In this document: piece after piece, positions 18,094-31,373 of the stretch
Position numbering within the stretch: position 1 is the first letter of the stretch
Layout: every line of letters begins with the position of its first letter
Origin: an uncultured Methanomassiliicoccus sp.
GTDB lineage: Archaea; Thermoplasmatota; Thermoplasmata; Methanomassiliicoccales; UBA472
Reading direction: 5' to 3'
Assembly (NCBI GenBank): GCA_964585915.1
Contig: CAZPFU010000007.1
Span: forward strand, 11,912 to 75,911
DNA length: 64,000 nt
Translations under genes and position numbers: made by a program
The notes under the pieces: model-generated
What the model saw: the letters and a program-made list of their open reading frames with translations, nothing else
Database searches by the model: none
Told to the model about the DNA's origin: nothing

Positions 18094-19587
18094 GTGCTAG
18101 GCCGAAAGTCGTTCCTACTGTTCATCTCCAGGATGTTGACGGCAGCCCTTGCCTACGTGGGGCTGTACTTCATGACCCGGCCTCCTCTGGGACCGGAGAT
18201 CTACGGTACGATATCGTACACCATGGCCTTCGTGGCCACCTTCAACGCGGTGTCCGATCTGGGCTTCTCGAGCGCGCACATCAAGAAGGTGTCCGAGGGC
18301 GAGGACCCGGACGAGTGCATCAGCACCTTCGCCGCCATCAAGCTGGTACTCACCGGTCTGATGGTGGTCCTGATACTGTCGTCGGTGTTCATCTGGACCG
18401 GTCCGATGGGGAACGTCCTCACCGACACCAGCATCGACCTCATCCTGCTGTTCGTCCTCTATCAGGTGCTTTACGACATCTCATCCATAGCCACCTTCAC
18501 CTTCCAGGCCAAGATGGAGATGGCCAAGATGCCGCTGGTGACCCTGGTCGACCCGGTGGTCCGGCTTCCATTGGTCATCATGGTGGCCCTGACCGCCGGC
18601 GGGGTCATGGACCTGGCGTACGCCTATGTGCTGGGGGCCATAGCCGTCGTGCTGCTGGCCATGTACCTTCTCTTCCGGGAGGGCATCAGGTGGAAAAGGC
18701 CGGTGCTATGGCGTTCTTACTACAAGTTCGCCCTTCCCCTGATAATCATCACCCTGGTCAGCGCGGTGAGCGCCAGCGCCGACAAGCTCATCATCGGCGC
18801 CTTCTGGACCACCACCGACGTGGGCCTGTACACCGCGCCGGTGGTCTTCTTGAGCGTTTTCGCCACCGTGAGCACCGCGGTCTCCACTCTCACCTTCCCG
18901 TCCTTCTCCAAGCTGCACGCCGAGGGCAACCTGGAGGAGATCCGTCAGATGTCCAAACGGGCGGAGCGCTACATAGCCATGATCGGGCTGCCGATAACGT
19001 TGCTCATCATCATGTTCCCATATGCGGTTTGCGAGGTGCTGCTCGGCCCGCTATTCATTGATTCGGGCGATGCCATAAGTATCATGGCGGTGACCAATTT
19101 CCTGGTCATGCTCAACGCGGTGCACAGCTCGCAGATAGTCGCCGTCGGCCGTCCTGACATATCCGCTCGCATAACCATATTCGTGGTCGTCCTGAACGTC
19201 ACCCTGATGTTCCTCTTCATTCCCCAGAACGGGTTCGGCCTCGGGTTCGTAGGGGCCTCCCTGGCGCTCCTTATCGGGAACATAATCGGTTTCGCCCTGG
19301 TCCGATACTCGGTATGGCGCCTGACCCGGACAGCTCCGAACGTCCGCCTAGGCTTCCACATGTTGGCCGGCCTGGTGGCCATGGGGGCCATGTTCGCCCT
19401 GAACCTGTTCATACCCATCGATCGTTTCTACACCCTCATCCTCTACGGGATGCTGGCCTTCGCGGTGTACCTGCCGGTGCTCGCTGTGCTCAAGGAGTTC
19501 ACCAGGGAGGACCTGGACTACTTCCTGGAACTGATCAACCTCAAGAAGATGTTCTCCTACATCGGCAGCGAGCTCAAGGGAAAGTGA
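18094..19587 (+). CDS. Polysaccharide/oligosaccharide flippase (MOP/Wzx superfamily)
   Basis: 497 aa, about 14 TM segments, 'polysaccharide biosynthesis protein'-like N-terminus. Confidence 0.8.
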   Translation: MLGRKSFLLFISRMLTAALAYVGLYFMTRPPLGPEIYGTISYTMAFVATFNAVSDLGFSSAHIKKVSEGEDPDECISTFAAIKLVLTGLMVVLILSSVFIWTGPMGNVLTDTSIDLILLFVLYQVLYDISSIATFTFQAKMEMAKMPLVTLVDPVVRLPLVIMVALTAGGVMDLAYAYVLGAIAVVLLAMYLLFREGIRWKRPVLWRSYYKFALPLIIITLVSAVSASADKLIIGAFWTTTDVGLYTAPVVFLSVFATVSTAVSTLTFPSFSKLHAEGNLEEIRQMSKRAERYIAMIGLPITLLIIMFPYAVCEVLLGPLFIDSGDAISIMAVTNFLVMLNAVHSSQIVAVGRPDISARITIFVVVLNVTLMFLFIPQNGFGLGFVGASLALLIGNIIGFALVRYSVWRLTRTAPNVRLGFHMLAGLVAMGAMFALNLFIPIDRFYTLILYGMLAFAVYLPVLAVLKEFTREDLDYFLELINLKKMFSYIGSELKGK

Positions 19588-22620: not shown

Positions 22621-23508
22621 CTATTCCGACCTGGCCATCAGCAGGATGGCGGTGAATATCATCAGCGCGCCGGTGACCACGTAGGCGTCGATGACCTCGC
22701 CGAGGAACATCCAGCTGAGGAAGACCGCGAAGGCGGACTCCACCATCAATATCGTGGCGGAGGTGACCACGCTGATGTGCTTGAGCGCCGAGGTCCACAG
22801 CACCGTCGGCACGGTGGTGCACACGATGCCTATGAAAAGCACCGCCGGCAGGTCCGCCGGAGAAAGCCCGCCGTCCATGGGAACGACGAAGTACAAGGCC
22901 AGCAAGACCGGCGGCAGCAGCAGGTGCAGGCTCAGGCTCCACTGCTCCGCGGAGAGGCTGCGCAGCGCTATCCTGGAGGTGACCACCGACACGCCTATGC
23001 ACACCGCCGAGAGCAGCACCAGCAGGTTGCCGGTCATGCGCGAGCCGTCCAGGACCGAGAGGTCCCAACGGGTGGTCAGGGTGATTAATCCCAGGAGCGC
23101 GATGCCCAGCCCCAGCAGCCGCCGCCTTCCCAGTCTTTCACCGAACAGCAGACGGCTGAAGAAGGCCACGAAAACCACGTTGGTCCCGATTATCAGGCCA
23201 GCGGCCGAGGCGGTGGTCATGGTCAGACCCACGTAGGACGGGGCCACCACCCCGATGTTGACGATCGGCCCGGCCCAGAACTCCCAGCGTTTCAGCATCC
23301 CCGCGTCGAGCATCCCATTGGCGACCATGTACGCCAGCAGGACCGCCGAGCCCACGGCCATGGTGGCCGCCCCCAGCAGGAACGGGTTCACCTCGCCCAC
23401 GGTCATCTTTACCGCCACGTAGGACGTTCCCAGCATGAGGCTGGACAGCAGGGTGGTGAGCACTGCCCCGGTCCTCTTGTCGGTCGTTCCATCCAAAGCG
23501 GCGGTCAT
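22621..23508 (-). CDS. EamA/DMT-family transporter
   Basis: 295 aa, 10 TM segments, two EamA-like halves. Confidence 0.85.
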   Translation of the reverse strand: MTAALDGTTDKRTGAVLTTLLSSLMLGTSYVAVKMTVGEVNPFLLGAATMAVGSAVLLAYMVANGMLDAGMLKRWEFWAGPIVNIGVVAPSYVGLTMTTASAAGLIIGTNVVFVAFFSRLLFGERLGRRRLLGLGIALLGLITLTTRWDLSVLDGSRMTGNLLVLLSAVCIGVSVVTSRIALRSLSAEQWSLSLHLLLPPVLLALYFVVPMDGGLSPADLPAVLFIGIVCTTVPTVLWTSALKHISVVTSATILMVESAFAVFLSWMFLGEVIDAYVVTGALMIFTAILLMARSE

Positions 23509-23637: not shown

Positions 23638-24462
23638 ATGTTCAAGAAGCTCTTGGTCCCGGTGGACCTTTCACCGCAGTCCATGATGATGGTCGAGATA
23701 GCCGCCCGCATGGAAAGGTACGGCGTGGAGGAGGTCATGATCTACTCCGCCCTGGACCACGTCTCCAAGCGGGACCCCCTGCTGAAAGCCTTGGACGACA
23801 GGGTGGGCAAGGCCGGTCTGGAGCATAAGCTGGTGACCGAGGTCCGCAAGGAGCCGGCGCTGGCGATATTGAAGGCGGCCGACTCGCACGGCATCACCAT
23901 GATCGCCCTGGCCGCCTCCGGGAAAGGAAGGGTCAGGGAGTTCATAGTCGGGAGCACCTCGCTGGGGGTCATCCGACGCTCCAAGCTCCCGGTCCTGTTG
24001 GACAAGTTCCCCCTGGAGGCCAGCGATGACCCGCAGCGCTATTGCGAGGAGTGCCCTCCCCTGCTGGAACGGGTGTTGGTCACCATCGACCTGAGCAGAG
24101 CGTCCAAGGTAATGCTGCCTTTCGTGCAGCAGCTCATAGACGCCGGGGCCAGGAAGATGACCCTGTTCCATGTGGTCCAATCGTCCAGGTACAGCATGAC
24201 CGACGACAAGCGCTTCCAGGAGGTCAAGCGCAAGATGGAGGCGTACCAGGCCAAGCTGGACGCCAAGGACTGCGAGATCGACGTGCATCTTCATTTTGGG
24301 ACGACGACCTACAACATCCTGGAGGCGGCGAGAGAGATAGACGCCACGTTGATCGTCTTGGGGACCACCGGAAAAGGATACCTTCGCGGCGCCACCTTGG
24401 GTTCCACCTCGGAAGAGGTGGTGAAAGGGTCCACCAGGCCGCTATTGCTCATTCCATCCTGA
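23638..24462 (+). CDS. Universal stress protein (tandem USP domains)
   Basis: Two USP repeats, each ending 'G(S/T)T..(G/E)V...S..P(V/L)L(L/I)'. Confidence 0.85.
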   Translation: MFKKLLVPVDLSPQSMMMVEIAARMERYGVEEVMIYSALDHVSKRDPLLKALDDRVGKAGLEHKLVTEVRKEPALAILKAADSHGITMIALAASGKGRVREFIVGSTSLGVIRRSKLPVLLDKFPLEASDDPQRYCEECPPLLERVLVTIDLSRASKVMLPFVQQLIDAGARKMTLFHVVQSSRYSMTDDKRFQEVKRKMEAYQAKLDAKDCEIDVHLHFGTTTYNILEAAREIDATLIVLGTTGKGYLRGATLGSTSEEVVKGSTRPLLLIPS

Positions 24463-25344
24463 TCAGAGGAAGTGCTCCCGTTCGTTAAGCTCCCGGATGC
24501 GCTGCCTGAGCCTCTCCCCGTAGACCGGGTGCTGGAGGGCCAGTTCCAACTGCGAGTTCAGCCATCCCGGGATGTCCCCGATGTCGTAACGTTTCCCCAC
24601 GAACTCCCAGGCCAGCATGCCCTCCTTCTTCTGCAGTAAGCGCAAAGCATCGGTAAGCTGCACCTCCCCGTTGTGCCCGGGCGGGGTCTTCTCGATGCAT
24701 TCGAATATTCCCGGCGTCAGAACGTACGTCCCGGCGATGCAAAGGTCGGAGGGGGCCTCTTCCGGTCTAGGCTTCTCCACCAGGTCCTTGATCTCATACA
24801 AGCGGTCGTCCAGCTTGACCGCGTCCAGCACGCCGTAGTCCTTGACCTTCTCTCCAGGCACCCGTTCCGCGGCGATCACGGATTTACCGGTGCGGACGTG
24901 GACCTCCATCAGCTGCCTGACCACCGGCACCTCGGACACATGAATGGTGTCGCCGAGCATCACGGCGAAAGGTTCGTTCCCAACATGGTGCCTGGCCTGG
25001 TACACCGCGTCCCCCAGGCCGCGCTGCTCGTGCTGGCGTATGTAATGCAGGTCGGCCAGCTCGTGCAGACCGTTTATGCTTTCCAGCAGCGTCCTGCGAT
25101 TGCCGTTCTTGAGAATGCTTTCCAGCTCGAAGGAGCGGTCAAAATGGTCCTCAATGGTCCGCTTATGCCGGCCAGTGACGATTATGATGTCCCTGATGCC
25201 GGCCTTCACCGCCTCCTCCACCACGTACTGGATGACCGGTTTGTCGATGACCGGGAGCATCTCCTTGGGCTGCTCCTTGGTAAGGGGGAGGAACCGCACC
25301 CCCCACCCAGCCGCCGGAATGACCGCCTTCATGGCTACCAGCAT
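24463..25344 (-). CDS. galU: UTP-glucose-1-phosphate uridylyltransferase
   Basis: 'KAVIPAAGWGVRFLPLTKEQPKEMLPVIDKPVIQYVVEEA'. Alternative start at 25332. Confidence 0.9.
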   Translation of the reverse strand: MLVAMKAVIPAAGWGVRFLPLTKEQPKEMLPVIDKPVIQYVVEEAVKAGIRDIIIVTGRHKRTIEDHFDRSFELESILKNGNRRTLLESINGLHELADLHYIRQHEQRGLGDAVYQARHHVGNEPFAVMLGDTIHVSEVPVVRQLMEVHVRTGKSVIAAERVPGEKVKDYGVLDAVKLDDRLYEIKDLVEKPRPEEAPSDLCIAGTYVLTPGIFECIEKTPPGHNGEVQLTDALRLLQKKEGMLAWEFVGKRYDIGDIPGWLNSQLELALQHPVYGERLRQRIRELNEREHFL

Positions 25345-26672
25345 ATCCCTTCGTAGTTATTGGTTTTTGTCACGCCGCGGCCGTCCACAACCAGCAGGCT
25401 GCCGTACAGCGCGGGGTCGGAGAACTCCTGCCATTCTGTAAGTACGAGAACGGAATCCGCCCCCTTCAGGCATTCCTTGGCCGTATGGCAGTAGGTGATC
25501 TGCGGGAACTCCTTTCCGAAGTTGTCCATGGCCTGGGGGTCGTACGCCCTTACCTTCGCACCTTTGCGCAGCAGCTCGGCCACCACGGTCAGCGAGCTGG
25601 CCTCCCGAATGTCATCAGTTCCGGGCTTGAACGCCAGTCCAAGTACGGCGACAGTGCTCCCGTACACCTCGGTATGCCTTTCCAGCAGTTCGATCACTCG
25701 CCTAGGCTGTCTCTCATTGACGGAAAGGGTGGCGTCCAGCATGTCCGTGCGGACGCCCAGCGAGCGGGCCTGCGCTCTGATCGACTTGACGTCCTTGGGG
25801 AAGCAGGAACCGCCGAAGCCGCATCCGGCCTTCAGGAACAGCGGTCCCACCCGGGGGTCCATGCCCACTCCCTTGGCCACCTCGCGGAAGTCCAATCCCA
25901 GCGATTTGCAGAGATTTCCCAGCTCGTTCACCAGGGAGATGCGGGCGGCCAGGAAGGCGTTGGAGGCCAGCTTGATCATCTCCGCCGTGGAGGGATCGGT
26001 GCGCATGACCGGTGCGTCTATCCCCTGGTACAGGGAGGCCACCTCTTCGTACGTCCGGTCGTCCATGGCCCCCACCACCACCCGGTCCGGGTTGAGGAAG
26101 TCCTTGACCGCCATCCCCTCCTTCAGGAACTCCGGGTTCATGGCCAATCCGAGCGTGTCCGGCGATCTTCCGGAGGCCTTGAGCAGCAAAGGTCCCACCA
26201 CGTCCTTGGTGGTATTGGGTGGTACGGTGCTCTTTACCACCACGGTGTGCCTTCCCTTCTTCTTGGACAGGGACTTTCCCAGGTCCTCCGTGGCCTTCAA
26301 CAGGTACTTCAGGTCCAGCGAGCCGTCCTCGTGCGAGGGCGTTCCCACGCACAGGAAGGTGACGTCCGTCGCCGGAACCTCGGAGTAATCGCTGGTCGCC
26401 CGGAACGAGCCGGACGCCAGGTGGCGCCGGAGCATCTCCTCCAGGCCCTCCTCGAATATCGGCGGCGCGCCGGCGTTGATGCTCTCTACCTTGGCCTTGA
26501 CGGTGTCCACGCAAAGCACCCGGTGGCCCAGCTCCGCGAAGCACACTCCGGACACCAGCCCGACGTAACCAGTACCGATTATGGAGACGTACGTTCCGCT
26601 CACCCGCTTTGGGAACGCCCTCGGATTATATAACCTGCACCAGCCCTTTTCCCAGATGATCGAATGCCGCAT
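25335..26672 (-). CDS. ugd: UDP-glucose 6-dehydrogenase
   Basis: 'VSIIGTGYVGLVSGVCFAELGH' Rossmann motif and catalytic 'GFGGSCFPKD'. Start is either ATG 26672 or GTG 26603. Confidence 0.9.
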   Translation of the reverse strand: MRHSIIWEKGWCRLYNPRAFPKRVSGTYVSIIGTGYVGLVSGVCFAELGHRVLCVDTVKAKVESINAGAPPIFEEGLEEMLRRHLASGSFRATSDYSEVPATDVTFLCVGTPSHEDGSLDLKYLLKATEDLGKSLSKKKGRHTVVVKSTVPPNTTKDVVGPLLLKASGRSPDTLGLAMNPEFLKEGMAVKDFLNPDRVVVGAMDDRTYEEVASLYQGIDAPVMRTDPSTAEMIKLASNAFLAARISLVNELGNLCKSLGLDFREVAKGVGMDPRVGPLFLKAGCGFGGSCFPKDVKSIRAQARSLGVRTDMLDATLSVNERQPRRVIELLERHTEVYGSTVAVLGLAFKPGTDDIREASSLTVVAELLRKGAKVRAYDPQAMDNFGKEFPQITYCHTAKECLKGADSVLVLTEWQEFSDPALYGSLLVVDGRGVTKTNNYEGICW

Positions 26673-26737
26673 CTGGCGGGGGTTTTCGCTATAATCTATA
26701 AATTCTCCATGGCGGTTAGGGTAGAAGTGGATAGGAC

Positions 26738-27562
26738 TTGAACGAACTGCAGCAGGTTCAGCTCTCCATACTTCAGGAGATGGACAGGGTCTGCCGTAAG
26801 AACGGCATCAGGTACTTCCTGTTCTCCGGGACCCTGCTGGGCGCCGTCCGTCACAAAGGGTTCATACCCTGGGACGACGACATCGACGTGGTGTTGCTGA
26901 GAGACGAGTACGAGCGTTTTGTGGGCCTTCCACCAGAGGAGTTCGGTCCGAACTTCTTCCTGCAGACCAGCGATACCGACCTGGAGTACAACAACGTCTA
27001 CGCCAAGGTCCGGCGTTCCGACACCACCTACGTGGAATCCTACATGGACCACAAGCGCATCAACCACGGGGTCTTCATAGACGTGTTCCCGCTGGACGGC
27101 GTTCCGTCCAACCGGTTCCTGCAGACCATCTTCTGGTATCCCATCTCTGTTCTAGGTTACACCGCCAGCCTCAAGGCCTTCAAGAAGGAGCCCAAGCCGC
27201 ACCTCATCTTCCCCTTCGTCCTCCTCAAGACGCTCAGCCCTTTGAGCGGTGGAACGCTGATGAAAGCGTACGGCAAACTGATGGGGATGTTCGATATCGG
27301 ACGAACGCAGAAGGTCGGCTTCCTGACCCACGCCGGCTTCCCTCTCGGTCACGTGGTCTACGAAAAATCGTGGTTCGACCGCACGGTGGATCTGGAGTAC
27401 GAAGGCCTGTCGTTCCCGGCGCCAGGCGAGCATCACAAGGTCCTCACGCAGCTCTTCGGGGAGTACATGAACCCGCCACCAGAGGACAAGCGGGTGTCGC
27501 ATCACGGGGCCACCCTTATCGACCTGGAACTCCCGTACCAGGAAGCAATCCACGAGATTTAA
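26738..27562 (+). CDS. LicD-family phosphotransferase
   Basis: 'YFLFSGTLLGAVRHKGFIPWDDDIDV' LicD nucleotidyltransferase-fold motif. TTG start. Confidence 0.85.
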   Translation: MNELQQVQLSILQEMDRVCRKNGIRYFLFSGTLLGAVRHKGFIPWDDDIDVVLLRDEYERFVGLPPEEFGPNFFLQTSDTDLEYNNVYAKVRRSDTTYVESYMDHKRINHGVFIDVFPLDGVPSNRFLQTIFWYPISVLGYTASLKAFKKEPKPHLIFPFVLLKTLSPLSGGTLMKAYGKLMGMFDIGRTQKVGFLTHAGFPLGHVVYEKSWFDRTVDLEYEGLSFPAPGEHHKVLTQLFGEYMNPPPEDKRVSHHGATLIDLELPYQEAIHEI

Positions 27563-27591
27563 TTATCTGGAACGGGATTGTCCCGCGTACC

Positions 27592-28971
27592 ATGATCGTG
27601 ACCGCCATAATCCTGGCCGGCGGCGTCGGCGAGCGCTTCGGGACCGAGGTGCCCAAGCAGTTCGTCAAGCTCTCCGGCAAGCCGATAATCGGGCATACCT
27701 TGGACACCTTCGAGGCGAACCGTTCCATCGACCACGTGGTCGTGGTGGTCAACCGCCGCTACCTGGAGCAGACCCGGTCACTGGTCAAGGAGTATGGTCT
27801 GCGGAAGGTCAGGTCGGTGGTTCCCGGCGGCGCCACTCGTCAGGCCTCCTCCTTCGAAGGGCTGAAGGCCTGCCCGGAAGGCACCACCCACGTTCTCATT
27901 CACGACGCCGTCCGCCCCTTCGTGGACGACGACATCATCGACCGTTGCGTATCAGCGTTCAGGGAGCACCAGGCGGTCGACGTATGTCTGGCCTCCACCG
28001 ACACCATCGTGGAGATCGACGGCAACCAGGACATATCCGGCATTCCCCTCCGATCGACGCTCCGCCGCGGGCAGACCCCGCAGGGTTTCCAGCATTCCCT
28101 GATACTCAAGGCGCACCAGCTGGCCTTGCAAGAAGGGTTCACCGACTCCACCGACGACTGCAATCTGCTGGTCCGTTCCAGGCTGGCCCCGGTGCACACC
28201 ATCGAGGGTTCGGCCTACAACATCAAGATCACCAACCCGCTAGACATATTCCTGGCGGAGCGCATATTCCAGCTGCGGCGGCGCAACCTGTCGCCGTTGT
28301 CCCGGGAAGGGCTATCATCGTATCTCCAAGGCAAGGTGCTGGCGGTCTTTGGCGGCAGCTCCGGGATCGGTAAGAGCATCTGCGGACTGGCCGAGGAATG
28401 CGGAGCCACGGCCATCTCGCTCTCCCGTTCCAGTGGGGCGGACATAACTGACGCCGGGCAGGTGAAGGCCGCCCTAGACAAGGTGGCCCGGGACCACGGC
28501 CGCATCGACGCGGTGGTGCTTTGTTCGGCCGTCATGCACCGCGGGAAGCTGGTCGACGCCGAGGACTCTCAGGTACTGAACCAGGTGCAGGTGAACCTGG
28601 CCGGGAACATCCTGGTCTCCAAGTACGCCATCCCGCATCTGGTCAAGACCAAAGGCAAACTGGTCTTCTTTGCCTCCAGCTCCTACACCAAGGGGCGGGA
28701 AGGGTACGCGGTCTACAGCGCCACCAAGGCGGCGATTGTGAACCTCATGCAGGCTCTGGCGGACGAGCTTAGCGGGCAGGTGGACGTGATCGCCATCAAC
28801 CCGCAGCGTACCAGAACCCCATTGCGAGTCTCGAACTTCGGGGAGGAGGACGCTGGCACCCTGCTCAGCCCGGAGTTCGTGGCCCTGCGTACCCTGGGGG
28901 CCATGGCCTCCGGTCTCACTGGCAGCGTGTTCGACATCTCGCTGACGGACGAAATCGGTCGGGGAAAGTGA
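27592..28971 (+). CDS. Bifunctional cytidylyltransferase (IspD/TarI-like) / short-chain dehydrogenase, CDP-ribitol synthase (Bcs1/Acs1)-like
   Basis: N-terminal 'AIILAGGVGERFG...PKQFVKL'. C-terminal SDR with 'VFGGSSGIGKS' and 'YSATKAA'. The true start 'MIVTAII' at 27592 lies inside the longer track ORF. Confidence 0.85.
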   Translation: MIVTAIILAGGVGERFGTEVPKQFVKLSGKPIIGHTLDTFEANRSIDHVVVVVNRRYLEQTRSLVKEYGLRKVRSVVPGGATRQASSFEGLKACPEGTTHVLIHDAVRPFVDDDIIDRCVSAFREHQAVDVCLASTDTIVEIDGNQDISGIPLRSTLRRGQTPQGFQHSLILKAHQLALQEGFTDSTDDCNLLVRSRLAPVHTIEGSAYNIKITNPLDIFLAERIFQLRRRNLSPLSREGLSSYLQGKVLAVFGGSSGIGKSICGLAEECGATAISLSRSSGADITDAGQVKAALDKVARDHGRIDAVVLCSAVMHRGKLVDAEDSQVLNQVQVNLAGNILVSKYAIPHLVKTKGKLVFFASSSYTKGREGYAVYSATKAAIVNLMQALADELSGQVDVIAINPQRTRTPLRVSNFGEEDAGTLLSPEFVALRTLGAMASGLTGSVFDISLTDEIGRGK

Positions 28972-28989
28972 TCGTTCCTATCGGAAAGT

Positions 28990-30228
28990 TCACTCCTCCT
29001 TCTTGGCCTCCGGCTCGGACTGGTCGCCCTCCTTCTTCTCCTTGGCGGCCTTCTTCTCCTCTTTAGCCTTGTCCCTTGCCGCTCTGTTCTCCTCCTTAGC
29101 CCTTTGCTTGGCGGCATCGCGTTCTTCCTTGGCCCTGCGCCGGGCCTCCTTGCGAACCTTGCGCTCCTCGCGCAGGTCCCTGGGGAAGCCGGCGGCCTTC
29201 CAGTCCGGGCGGTAGAGCAGCAATTCCAGTACGTAGTAGACGATCCACAGCCCGGTGCCGACCATCAGCAACAGGAGCAGCTTGGAGAAGTCCAGGTTTA
29301 TCGATATCTCCTCTATGGAATCGAAGACGAACTTGCCTCCCAGGCCGATGACCCATATCCAGTACAGGGTTATGAGGACCATTGTCACGGCCGGAACGAA
29401 TCTGGACACCGAGCCTTTGGGATAGAACCCCTTGAAGAAGGCCAGGGCGGCCATGGGGACACCGAGCATCACCATGAACGAGGAAATGTCATCCAGGTTG
29501 GACATCATGGAGTCCACCTCCTCCACGTTCAGGCTGGAGAATCCCGCCTTCATGAGGATGATGACCATCAAGGGAATGATCACGAACCCGATCAGCGTGG
29601 AACGGGCCAGCTTCAGCCCGTTGAACAAGGAGCCGTATCTCAGCCGGAAGTCGTGATAGAAGCGGTGGTCCCCCGGCTCCTCCGCAGGCTTGGCCTCGAT
29701 CGTTCCCTCCTTCTCCAGGAACGGCCGGCGGTGGTCGGCGAACTCGCCGAACTGCATCAGCACCGCCAGAAGTGCCGGGAAGAAGTACAGGGCGAATATA
29801 GAGTACAGGTCCAGCTCGAAGGCTTCCCTGGATATGACGTCCTCGGTGCGTCCATTAAGCAGGAGCGAAAAGACGTAGACGATCACCAGCACCGCGGCGG
29901 TCAGGCCGAACAGGAAGCGGGAGTAACTGCCCTTAGGGTAAGCCCCCTTGAAGAATCCCAGTACGGTCAGCACGATACCGAAGATGAGCACCATGGTCTG
30001 AAGGTCCCCAAGGAGGTCGCCCACCCTCTCCGGCCCCTCCTGTCTGGCCAGGACCATCATTCCCACGGCGAACAGGATATACGGGATGACCAGGTACTTC
30101 AGGGCGCTCCCGACGGCTCCGAACGCTCCCTTGACCGGGGAGAAATGCTTCTTGTCGAACTCTCCGATGTTCAAGGTCACATCCCCCAAGGCTCGTAGTA
30201 ATCCTGTTCGCTGATGCCGGTCCACCAC
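28990..30228 (-). CDS. Internally duplicated multi-TM membrane protein with a Lys/Glu/Arg-rich C-terminal tail
   Basis: Two halves share 'FFKGAYPKGSYSRF' / 'FFKGFYPKGSVSRF'. Tail 'RKVRKEARRRAKEERDAAKQRAKEENRAARDKAKEEKKAAKEKKE'. An alternative GTG start at 30180 forms a GTGA overlap with the upstream stop. Confidence 0.7.
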   Translation of the reverse strand: MVDRHQRTGLLRALGDVTLNIGEFDKKHFSPVKGAFGAVGSALKYLVIPYILFAVGMMVLARQEGPERVGDLLGDLQTMVLIFGIVLTVLGFFKGAYPKGSYSRFLFGLTAAVLVIVYVFSLLLNGRTEDVISREAFELDLYSIFALYFFPALLAVLMQFGEFADHRRPFLEKEGTIEAKPAEEPGDHRFYHDFRLRYGSLFNGLKLARSTLIGFVIIPLMVIILMKAGFSSLNVEEVDSMMSNLDDISSFMVMLGVPMAALAFFKGFYPKGSVSRFVPAVTMVLITLYWIWVIGLGGKFVFDSIEEISINLDFSKLLLLLMVGTGLWIVYYVLELLLYRPDWKAAGFPRDLREERKVRKEARRRAKEERDAAKQRAKEENRAARDKAKEEKKAAKEKKEGDQSEPEAKKEE

Positions 30229-31373
30229 TGGTAGTACAGGGTGACCTTGACATGCACCATCTCGTTTCCGGTGTTCACGGCGTCAAAGGCCTCCTGCGAA
30301 AGCCAGATCTGGGCCCACACCCAGCCGTTCTCCTCCAGGAAGACCATCTGGTTGATGTTGGTATAGAAACCGTGGGAGTCCGAGTATTCGATGAATGCAT
30401 TGGCGTACTGTCCCTGGTGCGCGGGATCGGTCTGGAAGCTGAACGGTATCATCACGAAATAGGAACCGCCCATGTCCTGCAGGTAGGAGGCGCCCATCTG
30501 CAGCTGCAGGTTGTAGATCGGATCTCCTCCTCCGCCGCCCCCGCCCTGGTTCAGCTGCCCCTCCTCATAGGTGAAGCAGTCCAGGACGTACAGGGTGGTG
30601 CGAACGGTGGCGTTGGCCGTGCCGTTGGTCAAGCGCCCGTAGGCCTCCTGGGAAAGAGGTATCTTCGCCGACTCATGCACCTGCTGCGACAGTTGAACAA
30701 CCTGCGTCGCATTGCTGGTGTACCCTTCCTCGTCCCTGTATTCGGTGACCGCCACGGTCTGCAGCCCATCGAGCACATCATCGGCCCGGAAGGAGAACGG
30801 CACGACCACATAGCGGTCGTCGCCCTCCTCCTGGGTCTGGGCGTTCCACGTCTCCACCTGCAGGTCGCTGATGAACGGCCCCCAGCCCATGTCGCTGGCG
30901 GCCTCCACGCTCAGCTGGACCATGTCCAGGGTGTACTTGGCGGAGATCTTGGCGTCGAACATCATCTCCGTCCCGTTGAATATCAGGTCAGAACGGACCC
31001 TCTGATCAAGGTCGTAGAGGTCCAGCTCGATGCCGATGGGCACCTCGGTCTCCTCCCCGGCGGGTATGTCCATTGGTTCACCCGCGCTCTCCGCCAGCAG
31101 GTCCCCTTCCTCGTTCATGAAGATGAACGATACGGTCAGGTCGTTGATGTCGAAGAACCCGTCATTGCGGACGGTTATGGGCATCTCCGCCCGGATGACC
31201 CCGTCCTCCAGGGTCATCTCGCCCTCATCCCCGCCTTCCAGGTCCAGGCCTATTCCGCCCGTGAGGAGCGGCAGGATGCTCAGAACGACTATCGCCGCCA
31301 CCATCAGCTTGAAGGCCACGATGCCCAAGCGGGTGACTACCAGGGGCCACTTCATGCAGGGACGCAGGAACAT
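30177..31373 (-). CDS. N-terminally anchored extracytoplasmic protein with duplicated domain and a Gly7 linker
   Basis: N-terminal TM 'IVAFKLMVAAIVVLSILPLL'. Repeats 'VVVPFSFRADD...LSQEAYGRLTNG' and 'FVMIPFSFQTDP...LSQEAFDAVNTG'. Confidence 0.7.
   Translation of the reverse strand: MFLRPCMKWPLVVTRLGIVAFKLMVAAIVVLSILPLLTGGIGLDLEGGDEGEMTLEDGVIRAEMPITVRNDGFFDINDLTVSFIFMNEEGDLLAESAGEPMDIPAGEETEVPIGIELDLYDLDQRVRSDLIFNGTEMMFDAKISAKYTLDMVQLSVEAASDMGWGPFISDLQVETWNAQTQEEGDDRYVVVPFSFRADDVLDGLQTVAVTEYRDEEGYTSNATQVVQLSQQVHESAKIPLSQEAYGRLTNGTANATVRTTLYVLDCFTYEEGQLNQGGGGGGGDPIYNLQLQMGASYLQDMGGSYFVMIPFSFQTDPAHQGQYANAFIEYSDSHGFYTNINQMVFLEENGWVWAQIWLSQEAFDAVNTGNEMVHVKVTLYYQWWTGISEQDYYEPWGM

Follow-up and report, generated by a model that had tools for sequence, protein, structure and literature searches.

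The window analysed here, a 64,000-nucleotide stretch of DNA from an uncultured, methane-producing Methanomassiliicoccus sp., carries a gene for a LicD-family phosphotransferase followed by a gene in which an IspD/TarI-type cytidylyltransferase is fused to an SDR reductase. Do these two genes enable an archaeon to attach ribitol phosphate, or a related alditol phosphate, to a glycan at its surface? We favour, with moderate confidence, the view that the licD and fusion genes act together, as a cassette of two, to decorate a surface glycoconjugate with alditol (ribitol) phosphate. From the evidence below we infer ribitol as the alcohol, the pairing of donor and transferase, the acceptor and any link to UDP-Glc/UDP-GlcA.

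Organization of the locus

A sequence-only reading of this DNA had described galU and ugd, on the minus strand, as diverging from licD, on the plus strand. All four genes were found where it placed them, on the strands it gave:

24463–25344, minus strand: galU, UTP-glucose-1-phosphate uridylyltransferase, 293 aa (TIGR01099, PF00483)
25335–26603, minus strand: ugd, nucleotide-sugar 6-dehydrogenase, 422 aa from the probable GTG start at 26603 (three UDPG_MGDP_dh domains)
26604–26737: region between the diverging ugd and licD genes, containing two TATA-like elements in opposite orientation (read from the sequence)
26738–27562, plus strand: licD, LicD-family CDP-alcohol phosphotransferase, 274 aa, TTG start (PF04991)
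27563–27591, plus strand: licD-fusion spacer, 29 nt (read from the sequence)
27592–28971, plus strand: IspD-SDR fusion gene, 459 aa, ATG start (PF01128 and PF00106/PF13561)
27598–28269, plus strand: N-terminal IspD/TarI-type cytidylyltransferase domain of the fusion, residues 3–226 (PF01128)
28324–28941, plus strand: C-terminal classical SDR domain of the fusion, residues 245–450 (PF00106, PF13561)

Pfam E-values of the four genes are far beyond chance expectation. The reported 29-nt gap is exact, as the TAA stop of licD occupies 27560–27562 and the ATG of the fusion gene begins at 27592. The two genes share a strand and are presumably co-transcribed. The short gap and the licD-then-fusion order recur at four other loci (L001, L002, L003 and L019).

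The galU product exceeds the cut-off of the GalU model TIGR01099 (361.6 bits against 326.8) and matches PF00483 (E 7e-31). The gene is the second of a ugd-galU operon, its start overlapping the ugd stop by 10 nt, and is 78–93% identical to its counterparts in congeners, whether or not these carry the licD cassette. In the ugd product, each of the three UDPG_MGDP_dh domains is present (E 7e-57, 7e-35 and 4e-27), and the score with TIGR03026 is 448 bits (cut-off 189.8). Among equivalogs, AglM scores highest, but its 494 bits fall short of the 670 cut-off of that model. The most likely substrate is UDP-glucose.

The longest ugd reading frame (25335–26672, minus strand) begins at an ATG at 26672. 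The true start is probably the GTG at 26603, which would leave the first 23 codons of the frame untranslated. In three congeners a stop codon falls inside this extension, and congener ugd genes start with MRVSIIGTGYVG (MRVSIIGTG). With the GTG start, the divergent intergenic region measures about 134 nt instead of 65 nt. On the minus strand, the TATA-like element TTATATAA (26633–26626) is located about 26 nt upstream of the GTG, a spacing that suggests a leaderless ugd transcript. On the plus strand, TATAATCTATAAAT (26690–26703) precedes the TTG of licD. Both elements are putative promoter components.

The LicD protein

The assignment to the LicD family was borne out. The protein matches PF04991 over the full model (1–227/227; E 1e-42; 147 bits, cut-off 22.6), and its motifs are intact. 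GxLLGAxRH...PWDxDxD spans residues 31–51, and the acidic DVFPLD follows at 115–120. These motifs, D115 and D120 included, are invariant among eight LicD proteins encoded next to a fusion gene. The TTG start is supported by the N-terminus, which is conserved in the same eight proteins. Inspection of the sequence reveals neither an obvious signal peptide nor a long hydrophobic stretch at the N-terminus. No second licD gene occurs in the genome.

LicD enzymes use more than one donor. FKTN and FKRP, which belong to this family, transfer ribitol-5-phosphate from CDP-ribitol (PMC8587909), and CDP-choline, possibly also CDP-glycerol, serves other members (PMC9574508). Residues 19–55 of the window protein align to the catalytic motif of FKRP (6KAJ; E 2e-5), and its best NCBIfam match is the cholinephosphotransferase model Mf1, with which it scores 71.6 bits (cut-off 225). 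Genomic association, in the form of co-occurrence and adjacency with the fusion gene and the lack of a choline kinase match, suggests that the donor may be CDP-ribitol, as for FKTN/FKRP, and not CDP-choline or CDP-glycerol.

The IspD-SDR fusion protein

A fusion of an IspD/TarI-type cytidylyltransferase to an SDR reductase had been predicted, and domain searches confirmed it. PF01128 (IspD) covers residues 3–226 (E 1e-52), and adh_short (PF00106, E 3e-26) and adh_short_C2 (PF13561, E 3e-24) cover residues 245–450 approximately. This is the domain order described for Bcs1, in which an IspD-like cytidylyltransferase is N-terminal and the C-terminal part is a reductase resembling FabG (PMC4017328). 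The family is very large, and a length of about 460 aa is typical of it.

The cytidylyltransferase domain features the motifs AGGVGERF, PKQF, HDAVRPF, DT, RGQTPQ and KIT. Its catalytic residues (G11, G13, R15, K22, H104, D105, R108, P109, K212 and T214) are all present and invariant in the family alignment, as are residues G254, G258, G260, N335, S362, Y375 and K379 of the SDR domain. The latter domain contains a GGSSGIG motif, the N335/S362/Y375/K379 tetrad and the invariant R406 and R412; we presume the roles of its residues from general knowledge of SDR enzymes. The S278-R279 pair following strand beta-2 is read as a preference for NADP(H), and R406 and R412 are candidate phosphate binders. 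The protein retains 56 of the 56 positions conserved in at least 97% of 66 family members, and departs from the 90% family consensus only at F123 and M315. Its two-domain structure model has a mean pLDDT of 86.7, and the SDR domain is modelled confidently as a Rossmann fold, with block pLDDT values mostly between 87 and 98.

TarI-type and IspD-type cytidylyltransferases are inseparable by sequence or fold. The fusion scores 189.4 with TIGR00453 (ispD), above the cut-off of 181.3, and 164.4 with NF001183 (ribitol-5-P cytidylyltransferase), just under the cut-off of 166. Matches of the N-terminal domain to PDB sequences are about equal for B. subtilis IspD (5ddt) and TarI (4jis, 6xhp), and its fold matches IspD, TarI and human ISPD, again with no clear preference for either type. 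Full-length homologues (43–48% identity) are named ribitol-5-phosphate 2-dehydrogenase/D-ribitol-5-phosphate cytidylyltransferase by JGI/NCBI, and NCBI MAGs list close homologues under the name 2-C-methyl-D-erythritol 4-phosphate cytidylyltransferase. By analogy with Bcs1, we infer that the fusion reduces ribulose-5-P with NADPH to ribitol-5-P and couples the latter to CTP, yielding CDP-ribitol.

Linkage of licD to the fusion gene

Co-occurrence and adjacency within f1, the family of the window, support functional coupling of LicD and the fusion protein. In this family, LicD was found only in five genomes (G000, G018, G027, G103 and G023), and each of these has the fusion gene as well; in a sixth f1 genome with the fusion, the gene sits at the edge of a contig. 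The licD and fusion genes adjoin in G018, G027 and G103, and are 7 kb apart in G023. They adjoin even where the flanking context differs. Sixteen Methanomassiliicoccales genomes of other families have LicD without the fusion.

Beyond family f1, 80 species loci were surveyed, and 70 of them have a TagF-like (63) or LicD (8) gene at most 6 kb from the fusion gene; Pfam served as a spot-check of these assignments. Other archaeal fusion proteins, from Korarchaeota and Ignisphaera MAGs, have a TagF-like neighbour. Glycan clusters surround the pair at L002 (GT2, rml and NeuB), L004 (Wzx and GT4) and L101 (GT2, GT4 and a GDP-mannose dehydratase).

A variable slot next to galU and ugd

The pair occupies a slot between the conserved galU-ugd genes and two genes for fast-evolving envelope proteins. 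Congeners feature a GT4 gene (G013 and G008) or a Wzx-like gene (G002) in this slot, for which at least three alternative cassettes are known, the licD-fusion pair being one. This swappable slot holding the pair is a new observation. No glycosyltransferase gene adjoins the cassette in the window. An EamA gene 3 kb from the pair is kept in congeners without LicD, and so is not part of the cassette.

The sequence-only reading had predicted a glycan built from UDP-Glc and UDP-GlcA. The galU and ugd genes do adjoin the cassette, but they are a fixture of the locus also in congeners that have neither licD nor the fusion gene, and in G027 the pair is 132 kb away from ugd. Adjacency is thus only circumstantial evidence for glucose or glucuronic acid in the decorated glycan.

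Proposed pathway and alternatives

In the proposed pathway, the SDR domain would reduce D-ribulose-5-phosphate with NADPH to D-ribitol-5-phosphate. The starting compound is an ordinary intermediate, which the HPS (220.9 bits, above cut-off), PHI-like (146.7 bits) and RpiA (269 bits) proteins encoded in the genome could supply. The cytidylyltransferase domain would join this product to CTP and so form CDP-ribitol, as Bcs1 does. A cytoplasmic LicD would then move ribitol-5-phosphate from CDP-ribitol onto a sugar hydroxyl, either of a glycolipid or of a lipid-linked oligosaccharide, with release of CMP. The decorated precursor would finally be flipped and displayed; a gene for a Wzx-type flippase is located 7 kb upstream of the cassette, and AglB/STT3 is encoded in the genome.

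A teichoic-acid-type poly(alditol-phosphate) system was rejected, as no TagF-like (PF04464) polymerase gene was matched in the genome. The single LicD and the missing TagF-like gene suggest a decoration, not a polymer. The position of the cassette in the variable slot by ugd-galU implies that this decoration would be one of several interchangeable surface-glycan variations in the genus.

Of the competing explanations, the one that survives best, though we deem it unlikely, is that the fusion starts from some other ketose phosphate and makes a different CDP-polyol, for instance CDP-arabinitol, -xylitol, -erythritol or -glycerol, whose polyol phosphate LicD then transfers. The substrate of the cytidylyltransferase cannot be assigned from sequence or fold, and the archaeal fusion proteins form a branch separate from the named bacterial ones (97–99 SH-aLRT), on which specificity could have drifted. 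Three observations argue for ribitol. Homologue names in JGI/NCBI are those of ribitol enzymes. Every near-invariant position, including R406 and R412, is common to the window protein and to the Streptomyces members that are associated with ribitol teichoic acid. Furthermore, in the characterised routes to glucitol and mannitol, the CDP-ketose is reduced by an extended SDR (PF01370; PMC10918830), whereas the window protein has a classical SDR (PF00106) fused downstream of the cytidylyltransferase, as Bcs1 does.

Far less probable is the explanation that the two proteins are no donor-transferase pair, LicD moving phosphocholine or glycerol phosphate and the fusion product being put to another use, for example as a solute or in a lipid head group. 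Phosphocholine transfer is the activity for which LicD proteins are best known, and the best NCBIfam match, though below cut-off, is Mf1; the donor could be made elsewhere, the EamA protein might be LicB-like, and LicD occurs without the fusion in the 16 genomes mentioned above. Conversely, a search of the genome for choline kinase gave no match, congeners without LicD retain the EamA gene, and LicD is confined in f1 to genomes with the fusion, the genes being adjacent in three more of them despite differing flanks.

A true IspD, making CDP-methylerythritol for isoprenoids, had been named as a competing identity for the N-terminal domain; despite the TIGR00453 score and the NCBI names of close homologues, we reject this as vanishingly improbable, since neither DXR (PF02670) nor IspF (PF02542) was matched in the 94.5%-complete genome (9–10 bacterial control genomes were matched), the domain is fused to an SDR and embedded among glycan genes, and a distribution limited to 7/121 genomes of the order and 3/301 of the phylum sample misfits an essential lipid pathway.

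With alditol (ribitol)-phosphate decoration retained as the preferred explanation, a wider proposal can be put forward more tentatively, at not quite even chances. Decoration with alditol (ribitol) phosphate may be a genuine trait of archaeal surface glycans that has been overlooked, the work of a Bcs1-type branch, mainly archaeal, that teams up with LicD in Methanomassiliicoccales and with TagF-like proteins in Korarchaeota, Ignisphaera and Asgard relatives, and carried here as an interchangeable cassette in a hypervariable slot next to fast-evolving envelope proteins. If so, the locus would serve surface diversity much as O-antigen or capsule switching does in bacteria, and viruses might be what drives it.

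Comparison with known systems

Both enzymes are of well-known kinds; it is the archaeal setting for which no published report was found. Our literature search on CDP-ribitol or ribitol-phosphate chemistry in archaea returned no paper, which upholds the earlier statement that the modification is hardly documented for archaea.

A close counterpart by published description is Bcs1/Acs1 of Haemophilus influenzae (EC 1.1.1.405 + 2.7.7.40), which is alike in architecture and in its length of about 460 aa. Bcs1 has been characterised as a CDP-ribitol synthase (PMC10299916). The window fusion differs in being archaeal, on a branch apart from all named bacterial members, and in lacking the surrounding ABC-transporter capsule regions 1 and 3. 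Moreover, its partner is a LicD protein, whereas the ribitol-phosphate transferase of H. influenzae type b is the TagF-like CroT domain of Bcs3 (PMC10299916), so that the analogy with Bcs1 is incomplete.

Streptomyces homologues of the fusion (42–44% identity over residues 4–453) share all the near-invariant positions and have TagF-like neighbours. By architecture and context, they resemble the Streptomyces 'TarIJ' fusion (SGR_4956); the 'tarIJ' gene goes with a chemically determined ribitol-phosphate wall teichoic acid (10.1101/2025.04.24.650519; PMC13274773). In Streptomyces, the partner is a TagF-like polymerase, and poly(ribitol-phosphate) is attached to peptidoglycan. In contrast, the window genome is archaeal and has neither peptidoglycan nor a TagF-like gene.

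TarI of Staphylococcus aureus and Streptococcus pneumoniae is homologous to the N-terminal domain of the fusion (6xhp, 4jis and 2vsh; E 1e-28 to 1e-35), and TarI/TarJ carry out the two-step chemistry proposed for the fusion. TarJ, however, stands alone as a protein and lacks homology to the reductase domain of Bcs1, the reductases having been recruited convergently (PMC4017328); in the window protein, the reductase is a classical SDR and part of the fusion.

Campylobacter jejuni HS5.18/HS5.17 and pneumococcal Mnp1/Mnp2 likewise combine PF01128 with an NADPH-dependent reductase of the SDR superfamily to provide a CDP-alditol (CDP-6-D-glucitol or CDP-D-mannitol) for surface polysaccharides (PMC10918830). 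In these systems, the two activities reside in separate proteins and the extended SDR (PF01370) acts after cytidylyl transfer, whereas the window protein has PF00106 in the Bcs1 order.

Animal CRPPA (ISPD) and FKTN/FKRP follow a similar logic, an IspD-family protein making CDP-ribitol for transferases of the LicD superfamily (PMC8587909). CRPPA has no active reductase and receives ribitol-5-phosphate from elsewhere, in contrast to the fusion, which carries its own SDR. FKTN and FKRP, unlike the window LicD, are Golgi membrane proteins with additional domains. When the whole two-domain fusion model is compared by fold, human ISPD (4CVH) ranks first, with 17% identity over 471 alignment columns.

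Genes of the licD locus

The sequence-only reading had placed galU, ugd, licD and a two-domain fusion gene side by side at this locus, and ORFs and domain matches confirm all four at their positions. The DNA is from an uncultured member of the Methanomassiliicoccales, and close homologues bear names from this order. The 29 nt that it had counted between the LicD stop codon and the ATG of the fusion gene were found in the sequence, and domain matches bear out a cytidylyltransferase joined to an SDR reductase in the Bcs1 order. The genes and putative promoter elements are as follows.

24463-25344, minus strand: galU (TIGR01099, 361.6 bits, over the cut-off)
25335-26672, minus strand: longest ugd ORF (three UDPG_MGDP_dh domains; nearest equivalog AglM, 494 bits, under the cut-off of 670)
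26633-26626, minus strand: TATA-like TTATATAA, about 26 nt upstream of the ugd GTG at 26603
26690-26703: second TATA-like run, facing licD
26738-27562, plus strand: licD (PF04991 full length, E 1e-42)
27592-28971, plus strand: fusion, 459 aa (IspD domain, residues 3-226, E 1e-52; classical SDR, residues ~245-450, E 3e-26)

The longest ugd ORF is most likely over-extended by 23 codons (26604-26672), with translation starting at GTG 26603, because stop codons interrupt these 23 codons in three congeners, whose genes begin MRVSIIGTG. Together with the distance to the TATA-like element, this start suggests that the ugd-galU transcript is leaderless.

The fusion protein

A protein-collection search with the fusion returned more than 3,000 significant matches, nearly all of 450-475 aa and with the same two domains. 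Several of these, at 43-48% identity, carry the JGI or NCBI name ribitol-5-phosphate 2-dehydrogenase (NADP+) / D-ribitol-5-phosphate cytidylyltransferase. Both domains are conserved in the family alignment, and the linker is nearly constant in length. Invariant elements include the P-loop, PKQF, HDxVRP, RGQTPQ and KxT in the cytidylyltransferase domain, and GGxSGIG, the S-R pair after strand beta-2, the N-S-Y-K tetrad, R406 and R412 in the SDR domain. Among 66 members, the window fusion keeps all 56 positions conserved at 97% or more, and differs from the 90% consensus at F123 and M315 only. The same architecture is found in Bcs1 of H. influenzae, a characterised CDP-ribitol synthase (PMC10299916) composed of an N-terminal IspD-like cytidylyltransferase and a C-terminal FabG-like reductase (PMC4017328); judged from this published description, the two proteins are exactly alike in domain arrangement. 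No Haemophilus locus is among the 80 loci kept from the contig scan for fusion homologues.

The AlphaFold model of the fusion, for which the family alignment served as input (mean pLDDT 86.7), is confident within each domain and not confident in the relative orientation of the domains (pTM 0.55). The top fold match to this model is human ISPD/CRPPA (PDB 4CVH), with 471 aligned columns extending past the cytidylyltransferase domain. The model comparison hints that the Bcs1-type SDR has a degenerate relative in the C-terminal domain of the human protein.

That the fusion might be a true IspD, a possibility raised in the sequence-only reading, is favoured by its TIGR00453 (ispD) score of 189.4 against a cut-off of 181.3; the score for NF001183 (ribitol-5-P cytidylyltransferase), 164.4, falls slightly under the cut-off of 166. 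IspD and TarI types score nearly equally against the fusion in NCBIfam, PDB sequence and fold searches, so these do not tell the two apart. This possibility is ruled out by gene content and distribution. Neither DXR nor IspF was matched in the window's genome (1.79 Mb, 57 contigs, 94.5% complete), and bacterial control genomes were matched. Moreover, the fusion gene was found in 7 of the 121 Methanomassiliicoccales genomes and in 3 of 301 from a sample of the phylum, a rarity that does not fit a role in an essential lipid pathway. The substrate proposed for the fusion, ribulose-5-phosphate, should be available, since the window's genome contains genes for HPS (220.9 bits, over the cut-off), a PHI-like protein (146.7 bits) and RpiA (269 bits). 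NCBI MAG homologues close to the fusion are named 2-C-methyl-D-erythritol 4-phosphate cytidylyltransferase because TIGR00453 exceeds its cut-off. Applied to archaea that have no MEP pathway, it is almost certainly incorrect and, as a practical point, misleading.

LicD and its association with the fusion

The window's genome encodes a single LicD, and neither a TagF-like gene nor a choline kinase was found in it. Within the window's family (41 genomes, including the window's), LicD was found in five genomes only, and each of these also has the fusion: G000 (the window's genome), G018, G027 (MAG UBA472), G103 and G023. In a sixth fusion genome, G097, the fusion gene lies at the extreme edge of a contig. 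The licD gene directly neighbours the fusion gene in G018, G027 and G103, and lies 7 kb from it in G023. The pair also recurs in three rather dissimilar settings, each a glycan cluster. Neighbourhood L002 (66% identity) has GT2, rml and NeuB genes around it, L004 (54% identity) has Wzx and GT4 genes, and in G027 the pair is accompanied by genes for GT2, GT4 and a GDP-mannose dehydratase.

More broadly, a TagF-like gene (63 loci) or LicD (8 loci) lies within 6 kb of the fusion at 70 of 80 species-representative loci, which are not independent, as over half are from Streptomyces; ten of the 70 were checked with Pfam. In Korarchaeota and Ignisphaera MAGs, the fusion is accompanied by a TagF-like gene and glycosyltransferases, in nearly identical cassettes.

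L005, 5619-8404, and L006, 3037-5827: GT2, TagF-like and fusion genes (Korarchaeota and Ignisphaera MAGs)

This layout is of teichoic-acid style, in Thermoproteota-type archaea.

Two members of the LicD superfamily, FKTN and FKRP, use CDP-ribitol as the donor for ribitol-5-phosphate transfer (PMC8587909). The window LicD can be aligned to the catalytic motif of FKRP, and the motifs that do not vary among fusion-linked LicDs are intact in it. Elsewhere in the order, 16 genomes of families f6 and f7 carry one to three LicD genes each and no Bcs1-type fusion; the LicDs there must depend on a different donor or on a synthase that is split.

Ribitol or another alditol

There is good circumstantial evidence, though not proof, that the alcohol would be ribitol rather than another alditol. 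In the characterised routes to CDP-glucitol and CDP-mannitol, a PF01128 transferase works with an extended SDR (PF01370), which is a protein of its own and acts on the CDP-ketose as reductase (PMC10918830), whereas the window reductase is of the classical SDR type and is fused in the order seen in Bcs1. Streptomyces members of the fusion family (42-44% identity) adjoin TagF-like genes and resemble, by architecture and context alone, the published 'tarIJ' gene, the presence of which accompanies chemically determined ribitol-phosphate wall teichoic acid in Streptomyces (10.1101/2025.04.24.650519; PMC13274773).

Phylogeny and archaeal context

In quick maximum-likelihood trees built under two models, the window fusion falls in a 10-member clade with named Methanomassiliicoccales sequences (SH-aLRT 99-100). 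A split with support of 97-99 places this clade with Promethearchaeota, Nitrososphaerales, Korarchaeota and Ignisphaera, and all named bacteria on the opposite side. Archaeal monophyly is not claimed, as the archaeal side also holds three sequences without a taxon name and one Thermoplasmatota sequence (from G170) groups with the bacteria. The trees give no sign of a recent transfer of the fusion from a named bacterial group, and our claim is limited to that.

Ribitol-phosphate is characteristic of Gram-positive teichoic acids, some Gram-negative capsules and the mammalian dystroglycan glycan, and the combination of a CDP-alditol synthase with a CDP-alcohol phosphotransferase is textbook knowledge in bacteria and animals. 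LicD and the fusion both belong to known families. The sequence-only reading had called such chemistry hardly documented in archaea; in keeping with this, the literature searched yielded no report of ribitol-phosphate, CDP-ribitol or LicD function in archaea, and nothing relevant on teichoic acids or TagF in archaea or on the Methanomassiliicoccales envelope. If the prediction is true, phosphodiester-linked alditols would join the known archaeal glycan modifications, and the logic of ISPD plus LicD would be at work across bacteria, archaea and animals. Phosphodiester-linked alditol groups bring negative charge and are potential virus receptors.

A variable glycan slot

Of what is new at this locus, the polymorphism of the position that the pair occupies is the most useful detail. 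Congeners without the cassette keep the gene order Wzx, acs, HTH, EamA, Usp, galU, ugd, slot, two envelope proteins, PUA, SepF, HD and RtcB.

Window, 26604-31373: slot region, including the two envelope-protein genes
L099, 8333-9724: slot
L100, 8575-9954: slot
L102, 5176-6695: slot
Window, 28990-31373, minus strand: two unannotated envelope/membrane proteins beside the slot
Window, 22621-23508, minus strand: EamA transporter gene, between acs and galU
Window, 23638-24462, plus strand: tandem-Usp gene, between acs and galU

In the window, G018 and L001, a close MAG relative, the slot is filled by licD and the fusion. G013 and G008 have a GT4 glycosyltransferase there and G002 has a Wzx-like flippase, while synteny on either side is otherwise kept. 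At least three cassettes thus alternate in this variable glycan slot, the licD-fusion pair being one of them. A role in surface-glycan variation is supported by this arrangement, which also gives a concrete handle on such variation among closely related uncultured methanogens. No tRNA or meaningful flanking repeat marks a mobile element around the cassette, and its GC content (about 0.61) is that of the neighbouring sequence, with no compositional anomaly.

The two envelope proteins share 44-57% identity between congeners, against 80-97% for the flanking housekeeping genes, and the Wzx gene (18094-19587) is likewise divergent (52-72%). From these values, the two have the look of surface proteins that evolve fast, and they could be glycan carriers or targets of viral selection.

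The position of galU and ugd next to the cassette had been taken to predict Glc and GlcA in the glycan; their coordinates hold, and the prediction is weakened because galU-ugd is kept whichever cassette is present. The EamA and tandem-Usp genes are also conserved in congeners with any cassette, and are for this reason probably unrelated to the LicD module, notwithstanding a superficial analogy to LicB, a choline transporter.

The sole STT3/AglB match in the genome (G000:C2:113140-114426) lies outside the window, within an ORF of 2163 aa. For an oligosaccharyltransferase this length would be unusual, and an HPS-like match lies directly beside the STT3/AglB match.
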